Below, one piece after another: positions 11,434-20,926 of a stretch of DNA of 64,000 nucleotides. The notes under the pieces were generated by a model, which worked only from the letters and a program-made list of their open reading frames with translations, was not told the DNA's origin and ran no database searches. The stretch is from Alphaproteobacteria bacterium. GTDB lineage: Bacteria > Pseudomonadota > Alphaproteobacteria > UBA9219. The position numbers were made by a program, and so were the translations under genes. Within the stretch, counting starts at the first letter, position 1, and every line of letters begins with the position of its first letter. The DNA lies in NCBI GenBank assembly GCA_041908065.1, contig JAYRGC010000050.1, positions 21,718 through 85,717 on the forward strand. The letters run 5' to 3'.

Positions 11434-13098
11434 ATGTTGCTCAGGCCACGACAGCAGGAGTTTGTCACGCGTTCTCTCGGCGCGCTTGTCGCTCACGACA
11501 ACACGCTGGGGGTCGCACCGACGGGCGCGGGCAAGACCATCATGCTGTCAGCCGTCGCGGGCTGGATGCTCATGGAGGGCGCGGAGAAAATCTGCGTTCT
11601 CGCCCACCGCGACGAGCTGACGGCGCAGAACAGGGACAAGTTCGGGCGCGTCAATCCCGGCATCTCGACGTCCGTTGTCGATGCCAGCGAGAAGGACTGG
11701 TCAGGCAACGTCACCTTTGCCATGGTGCCGACGCTCTCGCGGCAAGCCAATCTCGATGGCATGCCCGCGCTCGACTTGCTGATCGTGGACGAGGCGCATC
11801 ACTGCGCAGCGGACAGCTACCGGCGCGTGATTGACAAGGCAAAGTCCCTCAATCCTTCCGTCAAACTCTTCGGCGTCACGGCCACGCCCAATCGCGGCGA
11901 CCGCAAGGGGTTGCGTGAGATATTCGACAACGTCGCCGACCAGATCGAGATCGGCGAATTGATTGCCTCCGGTCATCTCGTGCCGCCGCGCACATTCATT
12001 GTCGATGTCGGCGCGCAGGACAAACTGAGCCAAGTCAAAAAATCGGTCAGCGACTACGACATGGAGGCGGTCAACGCCATCATGAACACCGCGCCGATCA
12101 ATCAGGCCGTTGTCCGGCATTGGAAGGAGAAAGCGGGCGATCGCAAGACGGTCGTCTTCTGCTCGACCATTCATCACGCGCGATCCGTGCAGCAAGCGTT
12201 TCTGGAAGACGGCGTTGAAGCGGTTCTGGTCACAGGCGAGTTGAGCGATACCGACCGTGCCGAGGCACTGGCCGCGTTTGAAAAAGGCTCTGCTCGCGTC
12301 ATCGTGAACGTGGCGGTGCTGACAGAAGGCTGGGATTATCAGCCGACCTCCTGCGTCGTGCTTCTGCGACCCAGTTCCTACAAATGCACGATGATTCAGA
12401 TGGTCGGACGAGGCCTGCGCACAGTCGATCCCGCGCTTTATCCCGGCGTCATTAAAACCGACTGCATCGTGCTCGATTTTGGCACATCGTCCCTAATGCA
12501 CGGCACGCTGGAGACCGATGTTCAGCTGGAGTGCAAAAAAACGTCCGGCGCAGCGCCGACGAAAGATTGCCCGAAGTGCGAGGGCGTCGTTCCCCTCGGC
12601 GTTCACGAATGCCCGTTCTGCAATTACGAATGGGGCCATACCGACAAAGGAGCTTTGGCTGATTTCGTGATGACGGAAGTCGATCTTCTGAACGGCTCGC
12701 CGTTTCTCTGGTGCAATCTTTTCGGTGATGACCACTCGTTGATCGCCCAAGGTTTTGAGGCTTGGGCTGGCGTTTTCTTCTTCGGCGGGCGCTGGCACGC
12801 CCTGGGCGGCGGCAAGAACATGCCACCCGCGCTTTTGCGGGTCGGCGAGCGCCTTGTGTGCCTCGCGGCGGCCAACGACTGGCTTAACACCTATGAGACC
12901 GACGACACGGCCCATAAATCGAAGGGCTGGACACGGCAACCGGCCACGGACAAGCAGCTGCAATATCTGCCGCCGCAATACAGGACGGATTACAGCCTGA
13001 CGCGCTACCACGCCTCGGCGCTTATGACCTTCCAGTTTAATCGCGCCGCGATCCGCCGCCTCGTGTTCGACGCTGCCAAAGAGATGGAGGCGGCATGA
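11434..13098 (+). CDS. Superfamily-2 DEAD/DEAH-box helicase
   Basis: Motif I GVAPTGAGKT, motif II LLIVDEAHH, motif III-like VTATP; C-terminal extension. Confidence 0.75.
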   Translation: MLLRPRQQEFVTRSLGALVAHDNTLGVAPTGAGKTIMLSAVAGWMLMEGAEKICVLAHRDELTAQNRDKFGRVNPGISTSVVDASEKDWSGNVTFAMVPTLSRQANLDGMPALDLLIVDEAHHCAADSYRRVIDKAKSLNPSVKLFGVTATPNRGDRKGLREIFDNVADQIEIGELIASGHLVPPRTFIVDVGAQDKLSQVKKSVSDYDMEAVNAIMNTAPINQAVVRHWKEKAGDRKTVVFCSTIHHARSVQQAFLEDGVEAVLVTGELSDTDRAEALAAFEKGSARVIVNVAVLTEGWDYQPTSCVVLLRPSSYKCTMIQMVGRGLRTVDPALYPGVIKTDCIVLDFGTSSLMHGTLETDVQLECKKTSGAAPTKDCPKCEGVVPLGVHECPFCNYEWGHTDKGALADFVMTEVDLLNGSPFLWCNLFGDDHSLIAQGFEAWAGVFFFGGRWHALGGGKNMPPALLRVGERLVCLAAANDWLNTYETDDTAHKSKGWTRQPATDKQLQYLPPQYRTDYSLTRYHASALMTFQFNRAAIRRLVFDAAKEMEAA

Positions 13099-13295
13099 TC
13101 GACAAGCAACCCCATGAAGAAGCCGCTATGGCCGCCGTGCTGCCTTTGCTCGGCGAGATCGTCGCCGAGATCGGCATGGACAAACCCTTGTCCGCCTACA
13201 CCCGCGCGGAAGTCCTGACGCTGATCGAGGTCGTGGTCACGGCCTACCAGAACGCGCTCTTGCGTTTCACCCCGCAGGAAGGATGTCCGTTCTGA
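13095..13295 (+). CDS. Small hypothetical protein
   Basis: ORF translationally coupled between helicase and nuclease genes. Confidence 0.3.
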   Translation: MIDKQPHEEAAMAAVLPLLGEIVAEIGMDKPLSAYTRAEVLTLIEVVVTAYQNALLRFTPQEGCPF

Positions 13296-14071
13296 TGCTG
13301 GATTACAATCACAGGCCTTCGTTCGGCGACAATCTGAACGCGCTCATCGATGCCGGACTTGTCGCGCAAAATCGCACACAGCCGAAACGAACCTATCTCG
13401 GCGCATCGCGTCTTGGCGTCGCTTGCGAACGCGCGCTGCAATATGAATATGCCGACGCGCCGAAGGACGAGGACAAAGTGTTCGACGGCAGAATCCTGCG
13501 CATCTTCGCTATGGGACACATGCTGGAAGACATGGCTGCGGCGTGGCTCCGGCTGGCGGGCTTCGATCTTTACACAACGCGGCGCAACGATCCCCAAGCG
13601 GGTCAGTTTGGTTTTTCGGTCGCCAAGGAACGGCTGCAAGGCCATACGGACGGCATTATCAACGGCGCGCCTGCGGAGCTGGGTCTGTCCTTTCCCATGC
13701 TGTGGGAATGCAAGTCGCTCAACGACAAATCATGGAAGGATACGGTCAAGCGCGGCGTGAGCGTTTCCAAGCCGATCTATGCGGCGCAGATCGCGACCTA
13801 CCAAGCCTATATGGAAGGCCAGATCGCGGGCATCTCGCAAAATCCGGCGTTGTTTACCGCCATCAATAAGGACAACGCCGAACTGTATCACGAGCTGGTG
13901 CCGTTCGACGCGGGGCTTGCGCAGCGCATGAGCGATCGCGCCGTCAGGGTCATTGCCGCCACCGAAGCTGGCGATCTTCTCCCACGCATCACATCCGATC
14001 CTGCGTGGTTCGAGTGCAAAACATGCGCATGGCAGATGCGTTGCTGGAAAGAGGCCGCACGTGGGGCTTGA
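13295..14071 (+). CDS. PD-(D/E)XK-family nuclease (Cas4/RecB-like, C-terminal Cys pair)
   Basis: GHTDGI...LWECKS gives D...E.K catalytic motif; C-terminal WFECKTCAWQMRCW cysteines; ATG 13295 overlaps the upstream stop (ATGA) with an AGGAAGGA RBS. Confidence 0.55.
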   Translation: MLDYNHRPSFGDNLNALIDAGLVAQNRTQPKRTYLGASRLGVACERALQYEYADAPKDEDKVFDGRILRIFAMGHMLEDMAAAWLRLAGFDLYTTRRNDPQAGQFGFSVAKERLQGHTDGIINGAPAELGLSFPMLWECKSLNDKSWKDTVKRGVSVSKPIYAAQIATYQAYMEGQIAGISQNPALFTAINKDNAELYHELVPFDAGLAQRMSDRAVRVIAATEAGDLLPRITSDPAWFECKTCAWQMRCWKEAARGA

Positions 14072-17759: not shown

Positions 17760-18125
17760 GCACGAGCGGGCAATGCGGCTCTGATGGATCATGTTACACC
17801 GTCCGACATCATCGCACAGTATCCAACATTTTTGCACAGTATCCGAGGTTTTTCGAACAGCACCCGACATCATCTCACATCATCGCACAGTATCCGACAT
17901 CATGCGGAGAGGATCGCCTCTTTCAGCAATTATAGGACGCTTTCGGCAAGGAAAATGCATCGAAAATTGCTACATCATCGCAACATCATCTGACACCATT
18001 CAACACTATCGAACATCATCCGACATCGTTCGACATGACCTCACATGAACGCACATCATCGCACATGATCTCGCATGAACGTGCATCACCTCACATGATC
18101 GAACATCATCTCAGATGATCGCGGT
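17760..18125. repeat. Repeat-dense, AT-richer non-coding spacer (CGCACAGTATCC x3; ACATCATC / CACATGA(T/A)C x~15)
   Basis: Degenerate short tandem and interspersed repeats; several GATC-containing units; no RBS-supported ORF. Confidence 0.5.
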
Positions 18126-18322
18126 AGGCTTGGCCGCCCAACCACAACGAACGCAGGCAGGCCGTCCATCCCTTTGAAATATAAAAGGTACTTCCCGCCG
18201 CACAACGTATGCGGGCGGGCGAGGCGCGGGCCTTCGCTAGCGACTGAAATCTAAAACGGGTTACAGGGGCGGTTACAGTTACAGCCCTCATCCCTGCCAA
18301 AAAAACGACATCGAGGTTCTGA

Positions 18323-19696
18323 TTGAATGGTCTGGCTCTATCTGCCGCCGGAGGCGATCACGCATGCCCAAACGAAGTGCGCGCGCTGTTCGGCCTCTCG
18401 CTCTGCGCGGGCGCAGGCGGGCTCGACCTCGGCCTTCATCTTGCCGTGTCCGGATATCGTACTGTTTGTTACGTCGAGCGGGAAAGCTATGCCGCATCCA
18501 CTCTCGTGGCGCGGATGGAAGACGAGGCCTTGGATTGCGCGCCTGTCTGGGACGACGTTACCAACTTCAACGGCAAAGCGTGGCGCGGTGTGGTGGATAT
18601 CGTCCATGGCGGCTATCCATGCCAGCCGTTTTCCGTGGCGGGGCGCAAGCTCGGCGACAAAGACCCGCGCCACCTCTGGCCGCACATCGCGCGGATCGTC
18701 CGTGAAGTCAAACCGCCTGTCTGTTTCTTCGAAAACGTCGGCGGACATTTACGATTGGGGTTTGAACAGGTCGCAGATGACCTTCGAGCAATGGGTTACC
18801 GCGTTAAGGCAGGCTTGTTTACGGCGGCAGAAGTCGGCGCGCCTCACAAACGCGAACGGCTGTTCATCCTGGCCTACTGCGAGGGTTTCTTCGGCGAACG
18901 AGGCTTCGCGCAAAGAGATCTTGGCTGGGAACCCAAAATATCGCTTGGAGGTGAGCGCGCAGCTTTGGCTCACGCCGCGCGCGCAGGAGACGACGGAAAA
19001 GCAGGAAAGCTTCATAAAGCGCAACGGCGACAGGACAGGACGATGCTTCGGCTCCCTGACGGCGCAATCGACGTTATGGCCGACCGCGACGGCAACGGAC
19101 TCGCTCGTTCAGCGTGCCAGACCGCCAGAGAAAATGATCCGCAAGGACGGAAGAAACGTCCTTCGCACGCCGAGCCTTGCGGAGACGGTGCTGCAGCCGA
19201 AGGGCTTTCCGTACACGAAGCAGGATTTGCAAAAGGCAAAAAGCGGCGGCAGATACCGAACGGCAAAAACGCAATGGCCAACGCCGCGCGCGCAGGAACC
19301 GGGGAGTACCAGTTCGGATCACGGGATCAGTTTGACGGAGGCCAGCAAAACGTGGCCGACGCCTCGTGCATGCTCGGGCAAAAGATCAAGCGGCATGAAC
19401 AGGACGGAGCTTGTGGGAGCGTGGGCGACGCCAACGACACGCGACTGGAAGGACGGCGCGGCGACGGCGGATGTGAAGACCAACTGTCTGCTTGGCCGCC
19501 AAGCCCCACGCAGCATGGCGAATGGGAGCGCGTTCCCGCTGACCTTAAACCCGCGATTTGTCGAATGGCTGATGGGCTGGCCAGTCAACTGGACTGCCGC
19601 GTCGACCGACTCCGCCTTTGCGGCAACGGCGTGGTGCCGTTGGTCGCGGCTTATGCGTTTTGCACTCTGGCAACTGAAGCTATCAAAGAAAACTGA
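18323..19696 (+). pseudogene. DNA (cytosine-5)-methyltransferase with two apparent frameshifts
   Basis: The three conserved blocks lie in different frames (frame of 18323 / frame of 18327 / frame of 18323); switches fall around 18885-18962 and 19595-19617; motif detail given under findings. Confidence 0.55.
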
Positions 19697-19702
19697 AACC
19701 CT

Positions 19703-20926
19703 ATGACAGAAACGAACACGAAAATGGCCGAACGGATTGAGCTTTGGCCGCTGGATCGGCTTGTGCCCTATGACCGAAATCCGCGCACGCATTCGGAGGA
19801 ACAAATCAGTCAGATCGCGGCCAGCATTGTCGAGTTCGGGTTTCTCAATCCCATTCTGGTCGATACGGCAGCGGGGATCATTGCAGGGCATGGCCGCCTT
19901 CAGGCGGCAAAACAACTAGGCCTGACGCAAGTCCCCGTCGTCGTTCTCGATCATCTGAGCGAAGCGCAAAAACGCGCTTACGTCATCGCGGATAACAAGC
20001 TGGCGCTTAATGCCGGTTGGGACGACGATCTTTTGCGTGATGAATTGGCGGCCTTGGGGGAAGACGGGTTCGACGTTTCGCTCACTGGCTTTTCGGATGA
20101 GGAGCTTGCCGATCTGTTGGAGGATGACGGCGCGGCTGGGAATACAGACGAAGACGCTGTTCCGGAAGCCCCCGTCGATCCCGTCACCAAGGTGGGCGAT
20201 GTTTATGTTCTTGGCGATCATCGTTTGCTCTGCGGCGATAGCACTGTGCTCGCAAATGTCGAGAAAGTTCTCGATGGCGCGCTGGCCGATATGGTATTTA
20301 CGGATCCGCCCTACAATGTGAATTATTCAAATAGCCCCAAGGACAAAATGCGCGGCAACAACCGCGCCATCATGAACGACAATCTCGGCGATGGATTTGA
20401 GAAGTTTCTGTACGACGCTTGCGTCAATATGATCGCAGTCTGCAAGGGCGCGATTTACGTCTGCATGTCCTCAAGCGAACTGCACACGCTTCAAAAAGCG
20501 TTTGTAGCTGCGGGCGGTAAATGGTCGACTTTCGTCATTTGGGCCAAGAACACGTTTACGCTGGGGCGCTCGGACTATCAACGCCAGTACGAGCCTATCC
20601 TCTACGGTTGGAAGCAAGGCGCGGATCATTTCTGGTGCGGCGCGCGCGATCAGGGCGACGTTTGGTTTGTGAACAAGCCAACGAAGAACGATCTGCACCC
20701 GACCATGAAGCCTGTCGAGCTTGTCGAACGCGCCGTCCGCAACAGCAGCAAGAGCCGCGATATCGTCTTGGATTGCTTCGGCGGCTCCGGCAGCACGCTC
20801 ATCGCTTGCGAAAAAACAGGCCGTCAGGCGCGCTTAATCGAATTGGATCCCAAATACTGCGACGTGATCGTCCAGCGTTGGGAGGAGTTTACGGGCAAAA
20901 AAGCTGAATTAATCTCGCAACCTTAA
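19703..20926 (+). CDS. ParB-like nuclease N-terminal domain fused to N6-adenine/N4-cytosine DNA methyltransferase
   Basis: ParB-N box ILVDTAAGIIAGHGRLQAAKQLG; methyltransferase motif IV DPPY (FTDPPYNVNY); C-terminal SAM motif LDCFGGSGST. Confidence 0.75.
   Translation: MTETNTKMAERIELWPLDRLVPYDRNPRTHSEEQISQIAASIVEFGFLNPILVDTAAGIIAGHGRLQAAKQLGLTQVPVVVLDHLSEAQKRAYVIADNKLALNAGWDDDLLRDELAALGEDGFDVSLTGFSDEELADLLEDDGAAGNTDEDAVPEAPVDPVTKVGDVYVLGDHRLLCGDSTVLANVEKVLDGALADMVFTDPPYNVNYSNSPKDKMRGNNRAIMNDNLGDGFEKFLYDACVNMIAVCKGAIYVCMSSSELHTLQKAFVAAGGKWSTFVIWAKNTFTLGRSDYQRQYEPILYGWKQGADHFWCGARDQGDVWFVNKPTKNDLHPTMKPVELVERAVRNSSKSRDIVLDCFGGSGSTLIACEKTGRQARLIELDPKYCDVIVQRWEEFTGKKAELISQP

Follow-up and report, generated by a model that had tools for sequence, protein, structure and literature searches.

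The cytosine methyltransferase M.EcoHK31I has a beta subunit read from a short nested ORF (~176 aa) that starts inside the alpha gene, and its recognition domain is assigned to alpha. The enzyme is a natural heterodimeric C5 methyltransferase of YGGCCR specificity from E. coli HK31, in which alpha carries motifs I-VIII and X while beta, all of whose coding sequence lies in another frame within the alpha gene, supplies motif IX, and activity requires both chains (PMC2836561, PMC3404938). The original description is that of Lee, Kam and Shaw (Nucleic Acids Res 1995). In M.AquI, one subunit contains motifs I-VIII and the other the distal variable region together with motifs IX-X (PMC3404938). A literature search for two-frame phage C5 methyltransferases returned nothing beyond these two enzymes, and M.EcoHK31I is the only documented precedent for an alpha/beta design in two frames. 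A published "two-subunit prophage methyltransferase" (PMC10810198) is an unrelated enzyme of the MT-A70 type, and its upstream gene is a separate one.

Here we describe a locus within the window, the whole 64,000-nt stretch of alphaproteobacterial DNA that was analyzed, where two long ORFs overlap on the same strand. The sequence evidence indicates that this is an intact phage C5 cytosine methyltransferase gene, not a broken one, and that it most likely yields two cooperating, overlapping proteins. As in the published description of M.EcoHK31I, motif IX lies in an alternate-frame ORF inside the gene of the catalytic subunit. Unlike in that system, ORF B is as long as ORF A, starts 4 nt away and holds the whole recognition region and motif IX plus a conserved N-terminal peptide, and whereas M.EcoHK31I is a single restriction-modification enzyme, the design seen here belongs to a large phage/prophage family. 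The locus also resembles M.AquI as a two-polypeptide C5 methyltransferase, particularly in what some clades with an interrupted frame A may do (see below); however, the M.AquI subunits are consecutive, while the present ORFs are co-extensive and overlapping, and M.AquI keeps motif X with motif IX, while here motif X shares the catalytic domain's frame.

Both frames are free of stops from end to end, as the first-pass annotation had reported for two overlapping ORFs of 457 and 459 aa, and the third frame contains 15 stops. The extent proposed to be read in two frames is 1.37 kb in the window and ~1.2-1.6 kb in the family. An identical ORF A is found on a 134,651-nt NCBI contig, and public databases label ORF A "DNA cytosine methyltransferase", a label that misses the frame-B part. 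The features of the locus are as follows.

18313..18316, + strand: Shine-Dalgarno-like GAGG, 6 nt 5' of the frame-A TTG and 10 nt 5' of the frame-B ATG; read from the sequence, with a putative function
18323..19696, + strand: ORF A (457 aa, TTG start), the proposed alpha, with the catalytic domain, a ~195-aa unselected "shadow" of the frame-B region, and motif X
18327..19706, + strand: ORF B (459 aa, ATG start, +1 relative to ORF A), the proposed beta, with the N-terminal peptide, the catalytic-domain overlap, the W-x-T-P recognition region, motif IX and a tail that overlaps motif X
18327..18356, + strand: N-terminal peptide MVWLYLPPEA, frame B; in relatives ATG nnn TGG CTN TAY CTN CCN CCG GAN
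18389..18880, + strand: catalytic domain, frame A (PF00145, M.HhaI match, Foldseek)
18389-18433, + strand: motif I, FGLSLCAGAGGLDLG, frame A
18453..18614, + strand: stretch constrained in both frames; B, ...SWRGWKTRPWIARLSG...WISS; A, the motif II-III region to just before motif IV
18611-18634, + strand: motif IV, GYPCQPFS, frame A
18731-18739, + strand: motif VI, ENV, frame A
18842-18877, + strand: motif VIII, PHKRERLFILAY, frame A
18870..19532, + strand: target-recognition region of W-x-T-initiated units, frame B; frame A is open here but unselected
19545..19595, + strand: motif IX, LNPRFVEWLMGWPVNWT, frame B (hhalign, selection)
19598-19660, + strand: motif X, RVDRLRLCGNGVVPLVAAYAF, frame A, with LCGNGVVP inside
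19703..20926, + strand: downstream ParB_N plus N6/N4 methyltransferase gene, whose ATG shares nucleotides with the stop codon of ORF B (ATGA, 19703-19706)

The C5 methyltransferase hallmark motifs I (FxGxGG), IV (PCQ), VI (ENV) and VIII (RxR) all fall within the frame-A domain, where the first-pass annotation had read them in the frame of 18323; their coordinates and the Pfam DNA_methylase match (PF00145), which covers only frame-A residues 25-186 (E 5.6e-33), bear this out. Residues 14-171 of M.HhaI match the same stretch (E 3.4e-14), and Foldseek returns the HaeIII and HhaI methyltransferases (E ~1e-12). Motif X, the GNxVxP helix, shares the frame-A polypeptide with the catalytic domain, and its residues G434, N435, G436, V437 and P439 are invariant across 75 homologues. 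Between motifs VIII and X, frame A contains neither a recognition domain nor motif IX, and this stretch is unconserved and modelled as disordered. The AlphaFold2 prediction for ORF A has pLDDT values of 85-96 for residues 20-190, ~30-40 for residues 201-385, and 94 for residues 437-456, where motif X is modelled as a helix. We regard the frame-A shadow as read-through of the frame-B recognition region that is, judging from this model, probably disordered. A candidate conserved motif in frame A (WPPGP...KPAVCRxADG, 19493-19582) was set aside, as substitution counts identify it as mostly the shadow of the frame-B LLGRQAPR...motif IX.

The recognition region and motif IX can be read only in the +1 frame, as originally noted, and motif IX is found in frame B in 68 of 69 loci. 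Six W-x-T units make up the frame-B series in the window: WPTARV (18870), WLTPRA (18966), WPTATA (19077), WPTPRAQ (19275), WPTPRAC (19353) and WATPTTRDWKDG (19422). At its other end, ORF B begins with MVWLYLPPEAITHAQTK, which follows the pattern MxWLYLPP(E/D) seen in relatives. ORF B is conserved at full length in relatives that share as little as 35% identity, and the frame-B region matches annotated phage methyltransferase genes by tblastn. Alignment of a frame-B profile with a single-frame mycobacteriophage methyltransferase recovers the motif IX region (hhalign 95.3%, E 2.3e-8), and the columns from L407 to W422 of frame-B motif IX are invariant across homologues. On the strength of these alignments, the frame-B similarity is real and not a product of chance. 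A search of PDB sequences with the frame-B profile gave capsid matches only, at chance level, and the AlphaFold2 model of ORF B alone has a mean pLDDT of 47, with confident prediction only for residues 255-315.

The single-frame relatives illustrate how the pieces may belong together. Actinophage enzymes with LLPTPxA repeats (for example Mycobacterium prophage prophiFSIL01-1 gp6, BK061311) contain the same blocks in the same order, namely motifs I-VIII, (L/W)PTP repeats, NPRFSEWMMGWPLDW (motif IX) and LRICGNGVVP (motif X). Unlike in the window, the actinophage gene is confined to one frame, with 15 and 12 stops in the other two. By analogy, the actinophage enzyme is a picture of the window's enzyme drawn as one chain. 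The alignments of frame A to PF00145 and of the frame-B profile to the motif IX region of the single-frame enzyme, together with the selection patterns described next, uphold the earlier reading of the gene in three segments, A then B then A.

To assign a frame to each segment, we used synonymous-site patterns across relatives, including the synonymous share, defined as the fraction of changed codons that are synonymous in a given frame. Purifying selection alternates along the gene in the order B-A-(both)-A-B-A. The frame-B N-terminal peptide varies at frame-B wobble positions, with a four-fold synonymous diversity of 0.44 in B vs 0.11 in A, which points to frame-B selection on the first ten codons (MVWLYLPPEA). 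The synonymous share in the catalytic domain is 0.68-0.74 in A vs 0.13-0.14 in B. Within this domain, positions 18453-18614 show low synonymous diversity in both frames (0.10-0.23 in A, 0.03-0.25 in B) and synonymous shares of 0.47 in A and 0.31 in B. A second stretch, 18747-18836, may likewise be under dual constraint. The preference then passes to frame B in the recognition region (0.65 in B vs 0.05 in A) and motif IX (0.55 in B vs 0.26 in A), and returns to frame A in motif X (0.87 in A vs 0.20 in B), which agrees with the first-pass placement of motif X back in the first frame. The junctions that had been suggested at ~18885-18962 and ~19595-19617 coincide with switches in selection at ~18870-18900 and ~19590-19600, although the additional switch near the start had been missed.

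These patterns bear directly on the proposal that ORF A alone is functional, with its low-complexity middle serving as the recognition region and frame-B conservation being a side effect or the mark of an unrelated overprinted protein. The proposal has the annotation of ORF A alone in databases behind it, along with the completeness of this open frame, which holds motifs I-VIII plus X; we nevertheless consider it very improbable. Only 5% of changed frame-A codons are synonymous in the middle region vs 65% in B, and the frame-A middle is unconserved in the profile consensus with a pLDDT of ~30-40. Motif IX is found only in frame B (68/69 loci), and the frame-B region corresponds by homology to the recognition and motif IX portion that a single-frame methyltransferase reads in frame. 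In some clades the middle of frame A contains 4-14 stops.

Both frames are also kept open to an extent that codon usage does not predict. Of 142 complete loci, 131 (92%) have no interruption in frame A, counts that are non-independent in that the loci are phylogenetically related; stops in the third frame number 11 at the median and 37 at most. The openness of frame A is also seen at 45-48% GC. When frame-B codons of the recognition region are shuffled synonymously, 4.7 frame-A stops are expected in the window and 0 are present (P(0) <0.005); across 55 loci the expectation is 2-7, yet 51 of them have 0 (mean P(0) 0.03). The equivalent shuffling test of the catalytic domain is weak for GC-rich relatives (P(0) 0.5-0.9), and low-GC members, a single-frame control and a sample drawn through the frame-A catalytic domain were therefore used to judge whether frame B is kept open. 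In that sample, frame B is stop-free across the catalytic domain in 68 of 69 loci, and the single-frame relative has ~7 stops in the equivalent of frame B.

The start region provides a plausible route to two products. In the window it reads GAGG-N6-TTG-A-ATG (TTGAATG), and 141 of the 142 loci have an ATG, GTG or TTG in frame A at a distance of -10 to +8 nt from the start of frame B. Where a frame-A start at +2 or +5 is lacking (~95 loci), position -4 supplies one in 94 cases (ATGnATG or TTGnATG), while low-GC relatives start with GTGTGG or ATGTGG, with GTGTGG present in 12 of 142 loci. AUGUG and GUGUG sites are known to initiate translation in two frames (PMC9841429). The arrangement here, two start codons in different frames a few nucleotides apart behind one ribosome-binding site, has the form expected for dual-frame initiation, and both starts may be used. 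As in dual-frame initiation and overprinted viral genes, adjacent or overlapping starts would feed two frames (PMC9841429). In contrast to those cases, in which the alternative product is short or an unrelated overprinted protein, the two products here would be complementary parts of one enzyme over ~1.2-1.6 kb.

An alternative to two initiation events is programmed frameshifting, in which a single chain would be read in A through motif VIII, shift +1 into B, and shift -1 back for motif X; in a variant, an extra shift follows the frame-B start peptide, and shifted and unshifted products may coexist. Segment selection runs exactly A, B, A, and the single-frame homologue contains the same parts in the same order, both as such a chain would require. 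The window also has a 12-nt insertion between NWT (frame B) and RVD (frame A), so that a frame change placed between 19596 and 19600 would join them sensibly. In relatives, however, the motif IX/X junction GGGTGGAC reads GWT in B and RVD in A, so that the conserved parts overlap and share nucleotides, which argues against a shift between them. Inspection of a 66-locus codon alignment revealed no conserved slippery heptamer or +1 motif at any of the three junctions, with wobble variation throughout. Frameshifting would also leave unexplained the avoidance of stops through hundreds of codons of the unused frame, the conserved neighbouring start codons for both frames, and frame-B selection on the first ten codons followed by an unconserved spacer of variable length before motif I. 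The unused frame of a frameshift gene is free to gain stops, and here A is open in 131/142 loci and B in 68/69, with such a gain only in the minority clades L026/27/29, L089 and L094-97. Furthermore, a review of recoding gives no precedent for a bacterial or phage gene with two or three efficient shifts, and describes multiple shifts per gene only in Euplotes and mitochondria (PMC5009743). Frameshifting had been among the options first raised for this locus, and we retain it as a weaker, unlikely rival.

We instead lean, by a modest degree, toward two co-extensive polypeptides, alpha and beta, that would assemble into one C5 methyltransferase. Ribosomes would start at TTG 18323 (frame A) or ATG 18327 (frame B) from one Shine-Dalgarno-like site. 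Alpha would then contain the AdoMet-binding and catalytic elements of the large domain (motifs I-VIII) and the C-terminal motif X helix, with the two functional parts linked by ~195 unselected, probably disordered residues. Beta would consist of the short conserved N-terminal peptide, a partly constrained overlap with the catalytic domain, the W-x-T-P recognition region and motif IX. Association of the two would produce a normal C5 methyltransferase of large and small domains, as in the M.EcoHK31I heterodimer. The frame layout, its conservation across the family, the frame selected in each segment, the avoidance of stops in both frames and the paired starts are all obtained from sequence. From these we infer that both proteins are produced and bind to one another, forming a complex that methylates DNA.

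The two-polypeptide reading is favored because it accounts for open frames, alternating selection, paired starts and a selected frame-B N-terminal peptide where inspection reveals no conserved slippery heptamer. It is also favored because the frame-A and frame-B parts together make up the single-chain homologue, because M.EcoHK31I provides a precedent, and because AlphaFold2 predicts a disordered frame-A shadow alongside a confident catalytic domain and motif X helix. Counted against it are the frame-A stops in 11 of 142 loci; the poor AlphaFold2 model of beta alone, which leaves the folding of beta without independent support; and the ~180 residues of beta that overlap the catalytic domain without evident reason.

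The 11 loci with frame-A stops are informative in this respect. In nine of them, from at least three lineages (L026/27/29, L094-97 and L089), the shadow contains 4-14 stops beginning right after motif VIII. Motif X in these nine nonetheless shows 141 synonymous vs 85 non-synonymous changes in A and 37 vs 180 in B, and by these counts purifying selection in frame A persists there. Alpha therefore need not be continuous, and these clades need either an internal frame-A start or a shift from B to A. In L026/27/29 and L094-97 the last frame-A stop is followed by TGA GGG TGT GGC ATG, which reads as GAGGG-N6-ATG in frame A.

This arrangement is what would be expected of a three-piece enzyme, comprising alpha-1 (motifs I-VIII), beta and a separately started alpha-2 (~90 aa, motif X), with the long frame-A read-through a tolerated by-product. 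In the interrupted clades alpha-1 would end 4-10 codons past motif VIII, the GAGGG-N6-ATG would start a motif X that is still selected in A, and C5 methyltransferases are known to withstand splitting, whether natural or artificial, M.AquI and fragment complementation being examples (PMC3404938). We hold the three-piece enzyme to be distinctly improbable: the shadow is open in A in 92% of loci against expectation, which argues that alpha is normally continuous, and the window lacks a good internal frame-A ribosome-binding site, with GGGAG only 1 nt before a GTG at ~19418. Frameshifting also draws some support from the interrupted clades, as they keep motif X in A and their first frame-A stop falls at the A-to-B junction, like a shift site with a 0-frame stop. 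The clades that lose an open frame A while keeping motif X are fully explained by neither the two-polypeptide nor the frameshift model.

The two-frame layout is widespread. It is found in ~550 species genomes and >560 viral contigs spanning 45-72% GC, including finished isolate genomes such as that of Rhodobacter capsulatus SP18. Frame-B homologues number 6,525 cluster representatives at E 1e-3 or better, with at least 829 full-length frame-B ORFs in the database. The family comprises thousands of clusters across Alphaproteobacteria, and enterobacterial, Komagataeibacter and cyanophage subfamilies have the same design. Copies that could be used as models sit in a P2-like prophage of E. coli E21 (WP_463479269), in prophages of Rhodobacter, including that of R. 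capsulatus SP18 (NZ_CP198946, 3215555-3222715), and in those of Paracoccus. Occasional database ORFs of the family hop between frames (P0099), and indel errors do occur.

Seen in isolation, motifs that alternate between frames look like frameshift mutations, and the first-pass annotation had offered a pseudogene with two indels, or assembly errors, as explanations. The frame-hopping ORFs, which show indel errors in the family, lend this idea what plausibility it has. The identical layout in hundreds of independent genomes and viral contigs, among them finished isolate chromosomes, contradicts both versions. In addition, each segment is under purifying selection in its own frame, both frames are stop-free against expectation, and ORF A is repeated identically on the NCBI contig. 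We thus give decay or sequencing and assembly error next to no credence. We also find nothing in support of the suggestion that the methylase is silenced or switchable.

More broadly, it is about an even call whether there exists a class of phage and prophage C5 methyltransferases that is obligately dual-coding over its whole 1.2-1.6 kb, with starts a few nucleotides apart, segments alternating between frames, some constrained in both, and both proteins needed. If so, thousands of annotated phage C5 methyltransferases would hide a recognition domain and motif IX in an unannotated +1 frame, and predictions of specificity, REBASE-style annotation and structure prediction would consequently be wrong or incomplete. 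The family would represent a large, natural and evolutionarily stable full-length same-strand dual-coding gene with measurable selection for the openness of both frames, useful for studying the origin of overlapping genes, constraints on codon choice and the balance of dual initiation. To our knowledge, no conserved same-strand overlap of genes described so far in bacteria and their viruses would match it in length or breadth of distribution. Tractable models for testing it would be available among the E. coli P2-like, Rhodobacter and Paracoccus prophages. The finding would caution against calling pseudogenes or sequencing errors by default when motifs in phage genes alternate between frames, and M.EcoHK31I would be not a curiosity but the first described member of a common design.

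The methyltransferase gene in the window consists of two almost co-extensive open reading frames, and 15 stops interrupt the third frame across their span.

Features of the two-frame methyltransferase gene (window coordinates)
18323–19696, + strand, ORF A, TTG start, 457 aa
18327–19706, + strand, ORF B, ATG start, 459 aa, +1 frame relative to A
18389–18433, + strand, frame-A motif I, FGLSLCAGAGGLDLG
18611–18634, + strand, frame-A motif IV, GYPCQPFS
18731–18739, + strand, frame-A motif VI, ENV
18842–18877, + strand, frame-A motif VIII, PHKRERLFILAY
between 18870 and 19457, + strand, six frame-B W-x-T units
19545–19595, + strand, frame-B motif IX, LNPRFVEWLMGWPVNWT
19598–19660, + strand, frame-A motif X, RVDRLRLCGNGVVPLVAAYAF

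The Pfam DNA_methylase match is restricted to frame A residues 25–186 (E 5.6e-33), and M.HhaI residues 14–171 align to the same stretch (E 3.4e-14). Together with the ORFs and motifs, these matches bear out the first-pass annotation in its description of methyltransferase motifs in alternating frames. GC content by codon position peaks at the frame-B third position in the middle region of the gene, a pattern that agrees with an alternation of the selected frame.

ORF A has thousands of homologues annotated as 'DNA cytosine methyltransferase', one of them identical, on a 134,651-nt NCBI contig. For ORF B there are at least 829 predicted full-length homologues without any Pfam domain, with identity down to 35%; some are ORFs of 507–544 aa whose lysine-rich sequences point to AT-rich sources, and an exhaustive search returned 6,525 cluster representatives at E ≤1e-3 and 2,042 at E ≤1e-10. 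When used as a tblastn query, the frame-B middle region matched genes annotated as methyltransferases in Klebsiella, Synechococcus and Mycobacterium phages, as well as a hypothetical-protein gene of Komagataeibacter phages. For two Klebsiella phages (N133 and KpV2811) and Synechococcus phage S-H1, what matches is the +1 frame relative to the annotated gene; six-frame views of these phage genes place motifs I–VIII and X in the annotated frame, and WPTP repeats with (E/R)WLMGFPxxW in a +1 frame that is open nearly throughout. In Synechococcus phage Yong-M2-251 the +1 frame opens with MWLYVPNI (compare MVWLYLPPE in the window). In contrast, gp6 of the Mycobacterium prophage prophiFSIL01-1 has every part in one frame, with the remaining frames full of stops. 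Profile comparison divides this chain cleanly into a frame-A part (residues 5–187; 99.5%, E 3.3e-22) and a frame-B part at motif IX (residues 370–412; 95.3%, E 2.3e-8). From these alignments we conclude that the frame-B similarity is real and that the two-frame oddity is shared by other phages.

Scans of species-representative genomes returned 550 relatives, mostly in Alphaproteobacteria, with isolates including Rhodobacter capsulatus SP18, Paracoccus and Sphingobium and with Rhodospirillaceae and Micavibrio metagenome-assembled genomes as the closest; viral contigs yielded more than 560. Frame A is stop-free across ORF B in 131 of 142 complete loci, even at 45–48% GC, and the third frame of these loci has a median of 11 stops and a maximum of 37. 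Because the 142 loci had been found through frame B, a second sample was taken through the frame-A catalytic motifs, and here frame B is stop-free across the catalytic domain in 68 of 69 loci. Throughout this sample motif IX is confined to frame B and motif X belongs to A; frame B has 0–8 W-x-T units per locus (at least one in 68/69), and frame A lacks them in 67/69. These comparative data exclude the private pseudogene or assembly error considered in the first-pass annotation, an explanation to which we now give negligible weight. With both frames open, an indel in a member of this family yields a chimeric ORF and not a truncation. The predicted ORF of P0099, a 332-aa JGI metagenome protein, switches B-A-B-A within a single frame, and indels or assembly errors are the presumed cause.

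The openness of the frames was assessed by shuffling synonymous codons of frame B across the recognition region and counting frame-A stops. The shuffles predict 2–7 stops per locus, yet 51 of 55 loci have none (mean P(0) 0.03); the window's expectation is 4.7 (P(0) <0.005). The same test of frame-B openness across the catalytic domain gives a P(0) of about 0.01 in low-GC members and about 0.1 in the window's clade, and is uninformative in GC-rich relatives (0.5–0.9); the single-frame control has about 7 stops over this domain in the frame corresponding to B. By this measure, frame openness is under selection. In a 66-locus codon alignment, codon-position variability, four-fold synonymous diversity and the synonymous share of changed codons all agree on the selected frame.

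Synonymous share of changed codons (frames A/B) and selected frame, by frame-B codons
1–10, start peptide: 0.29/0.49, B
13–42, motif I: 0.68/0.13, A
43–96, nt 18453–18614: 0.47/0.31, slow overall change, both
97–185, motifs IV–VIII: 0.74/0.14, A
193–384, recognition region: 0.05/0.65, B
385–402: 0.22/0.28, neither
403–420, motif IX: 0.26/0.55, B
424–447, motif X: 0.87/0.20, A

Purifying selection therefore acts along the whole gene, with the selected frame alternating, and it is very improbable that frame A alone is functional. Synonymous diversity over codons 43–96 is low in both frames too. At 18747–18836 (codons 141–170), frame-B IYDWGLNRSQMTFEQWVTALRQACLRRQKS overlaps frame-A motifs VI–VIII; many of its positions are nearly invariant, the Klebsiella, E. 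coli and Komagataeibacter subfamilies have similar motifs (S.IYS..WK.K.TPAGRQ.C) in their +1 frame, and AlphaFold2 of frame B places a helix at 153–171 (pLDDT 53–72 over residues 141–170). The stretch may be a second one under dual-frame constraint.

The data show that both frames are maintained over the whole gene and, by inference, translated. Each frame contributes elements required by an ordinary C5 methyltransferase: the large domain (motifs I–VIII plus X) comes from frame A, and the small domain, with the recognition region and motif IX, from frame B. In the most economical mechanism, two polypeptides would assemble into one enzyme, a model we hold to be somewhat better than an even bet. 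One precedent is found in the literature: in M.EcoHK31I, an alternative frame of the alpha gene encodes the whole beta chain, which provides motif IX (PMC2836561, PMC3404938). That C5 methyltransferases tolerate such splits is shown by M.AquI and by studies of fragment complementation (PMC3404938). The design in the window differs in that the ORFs are co-extensive with adjacent starts, the second frame holds the whole recognition region, and constraint acts on both frames in some segments.

A single chain made by frameshifting is unlikely, as this leaves unexplained the open frames, the paired starts and the conserved frame-B N-terminus. From its start, frame B reads ATG nnn TGG CTN TAY CTN CCN CCG GAN, where variation at wobble positions in the 66-locus alignment indicates a translated, selected peptide; between this peptide and motif I, length is variable and sequence unconserved. 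Of the 142 loci, 141 have a start codon for frame A between −10 and +8 nt of the one for frame B. About 95 loci cannot rely on the automatic xTG at +2 or +5, and 94 of these carry ATG, TTG or GTG at −4 (ATGnATG in Rhodobacterales, TTGAATG in the window). Low-GC members start with GTGTGG, a site type at which two-frame initiation has been demonstrated in E. coli (PMC9841429). Inspection of the alignments revealed no conserved slippery motif at any junction. The motif IX–motif X junction of relatives contains an invariant GGGTGGAC, read as GWT in frame B and RVD in A; in the window, a 12-nt insertion relative to all close relatives (19596–19607; frame B 'AAST', frame A 'QLDC'-side) parts frame-B NWT from frame-A RVD, which elsewhere share these nucleotides.

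What favours frameshifting is the interrupted clades. Frame-A stops are present in 11 of 142 loci, and nine of these (L026/27/29, L094–97, L089) have 4–14 stops in the shadow, the frame-A read-through of the recognition region, starting 4–10 codons past motif VIII. In these nine, synonymous/non-synonymous changes show frame-B selection on the recognition region (1766/1006) and motif IX (52/7), and frame-A selection on motif X (141/85 in A versus 37/180 in B) despite the shadow stops; a continuous alpha polypeptide is therefore not essential. The sequences of L026/27/29 and L094–97 contain a frame-A GAGGG-N6-ATG after the last frame-A stop, which could start a small motif X peptide; the alternative is a B-to-A shift. 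A three-piece variant of the enzyme is rather less probable than frameshifting.

AlphaFold2 of ORF A (75 homologues) gives a confident catalytic domain (residues 20–190, pLDDT 85–96) and C-terminal helix (94), with residues 201–385 at about 30–40; in Foldseek, HaeIII and HhaI methyltransferases match this model over only about 170 residues. ORF B alone is modelled poorly, with only residues 255–315 confident; this model is uninformative for a subunit that may depend on its partner or on DNA to fold. The frame-B recognition region (18870–19532; P0002–P0120, L089–L097) is modular, with W-x-T-initiated units varying in number and order, an arrangement reminiscent of the tandem recognition domains in multispecific C5 methyltransferases of Bacillus phages. 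Among relatives, ORF B is 353 to 549 aa long. Examples of units are WPTxRxSSANGASxKExxAGNPKxRLEV, WPTATATD...ARPPEKMIRKDGRNVLRTPSLAETV, WPTPMANPNTNRQTKPTPSQ and WYTPNVPNGGRVNP, and the ARPPEKMIRKDGRNVLRTPSLAETV unit is the only one with a confident AlphaFold2 model.

The gene sits in a phage region in which helicase, primase and a DUF6362 gene are followed by a repeat-rich spacer, the two-frame gene, a ParB-N6/N4 methyltransferase, terminase gpA, a lambda-type portal and an S49 protease. The 650-nt spacer, which separates the replication module from the methyltransferase and packaging genes, is full of degenerate ACATCATCNN units (17800–18122) with a period of 10 bp (also 20 and 30 bp) by Tandem Repeats Finder, and might serve as an iteron-type origin or as an array for protein binding. 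Downstream, the ParB-N6/N4 methyltransferase gene has its ATG in overlap with the ORF B stop (ATGA, 19703–19706); in close relatives (among L011–L024 and L041–L086) the ATGA overlaps the ORF A stop instead, and in Rhodobacterales relatives each of the two stops has its own ATGA, with 13 nt between the motifs. This placement is consistent with ribosomes arriving in both frames.

We found no description of a family-wide two-frame architecture in the searchable literature. The design also occurs in other subfamilies: Klebsiella phages, Komagataeibacter phiKX1 and an E. coli P2-like prophage methyltransferase. For phiKX1 (L005; LC644975, about 12200–13375), only a 202-aa frame-B piece is annotated ('hypothetical protein'); the deposited annotation omits the catalytic frame, though it is open with PPCQPFS and APHIRKRLFFG. 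The E. coli gene (L247; strain E21, chromosome NZ_CM143892, 1379–2281) adjoins a replication endonuclease gene, has about 50% GC and encodes a 300-aa 'DNA cytosine methyltransferase', with about 255 open codons in the +1 frame that include WYTPTT, GWPTVTTQD and LNPAHSRWLMGFPPEW. Several early frame-B stops leave no start beside that of frame A, and frame B would begin about 37 codons in. This P2-like prophage gene offers a convenient experimental system.
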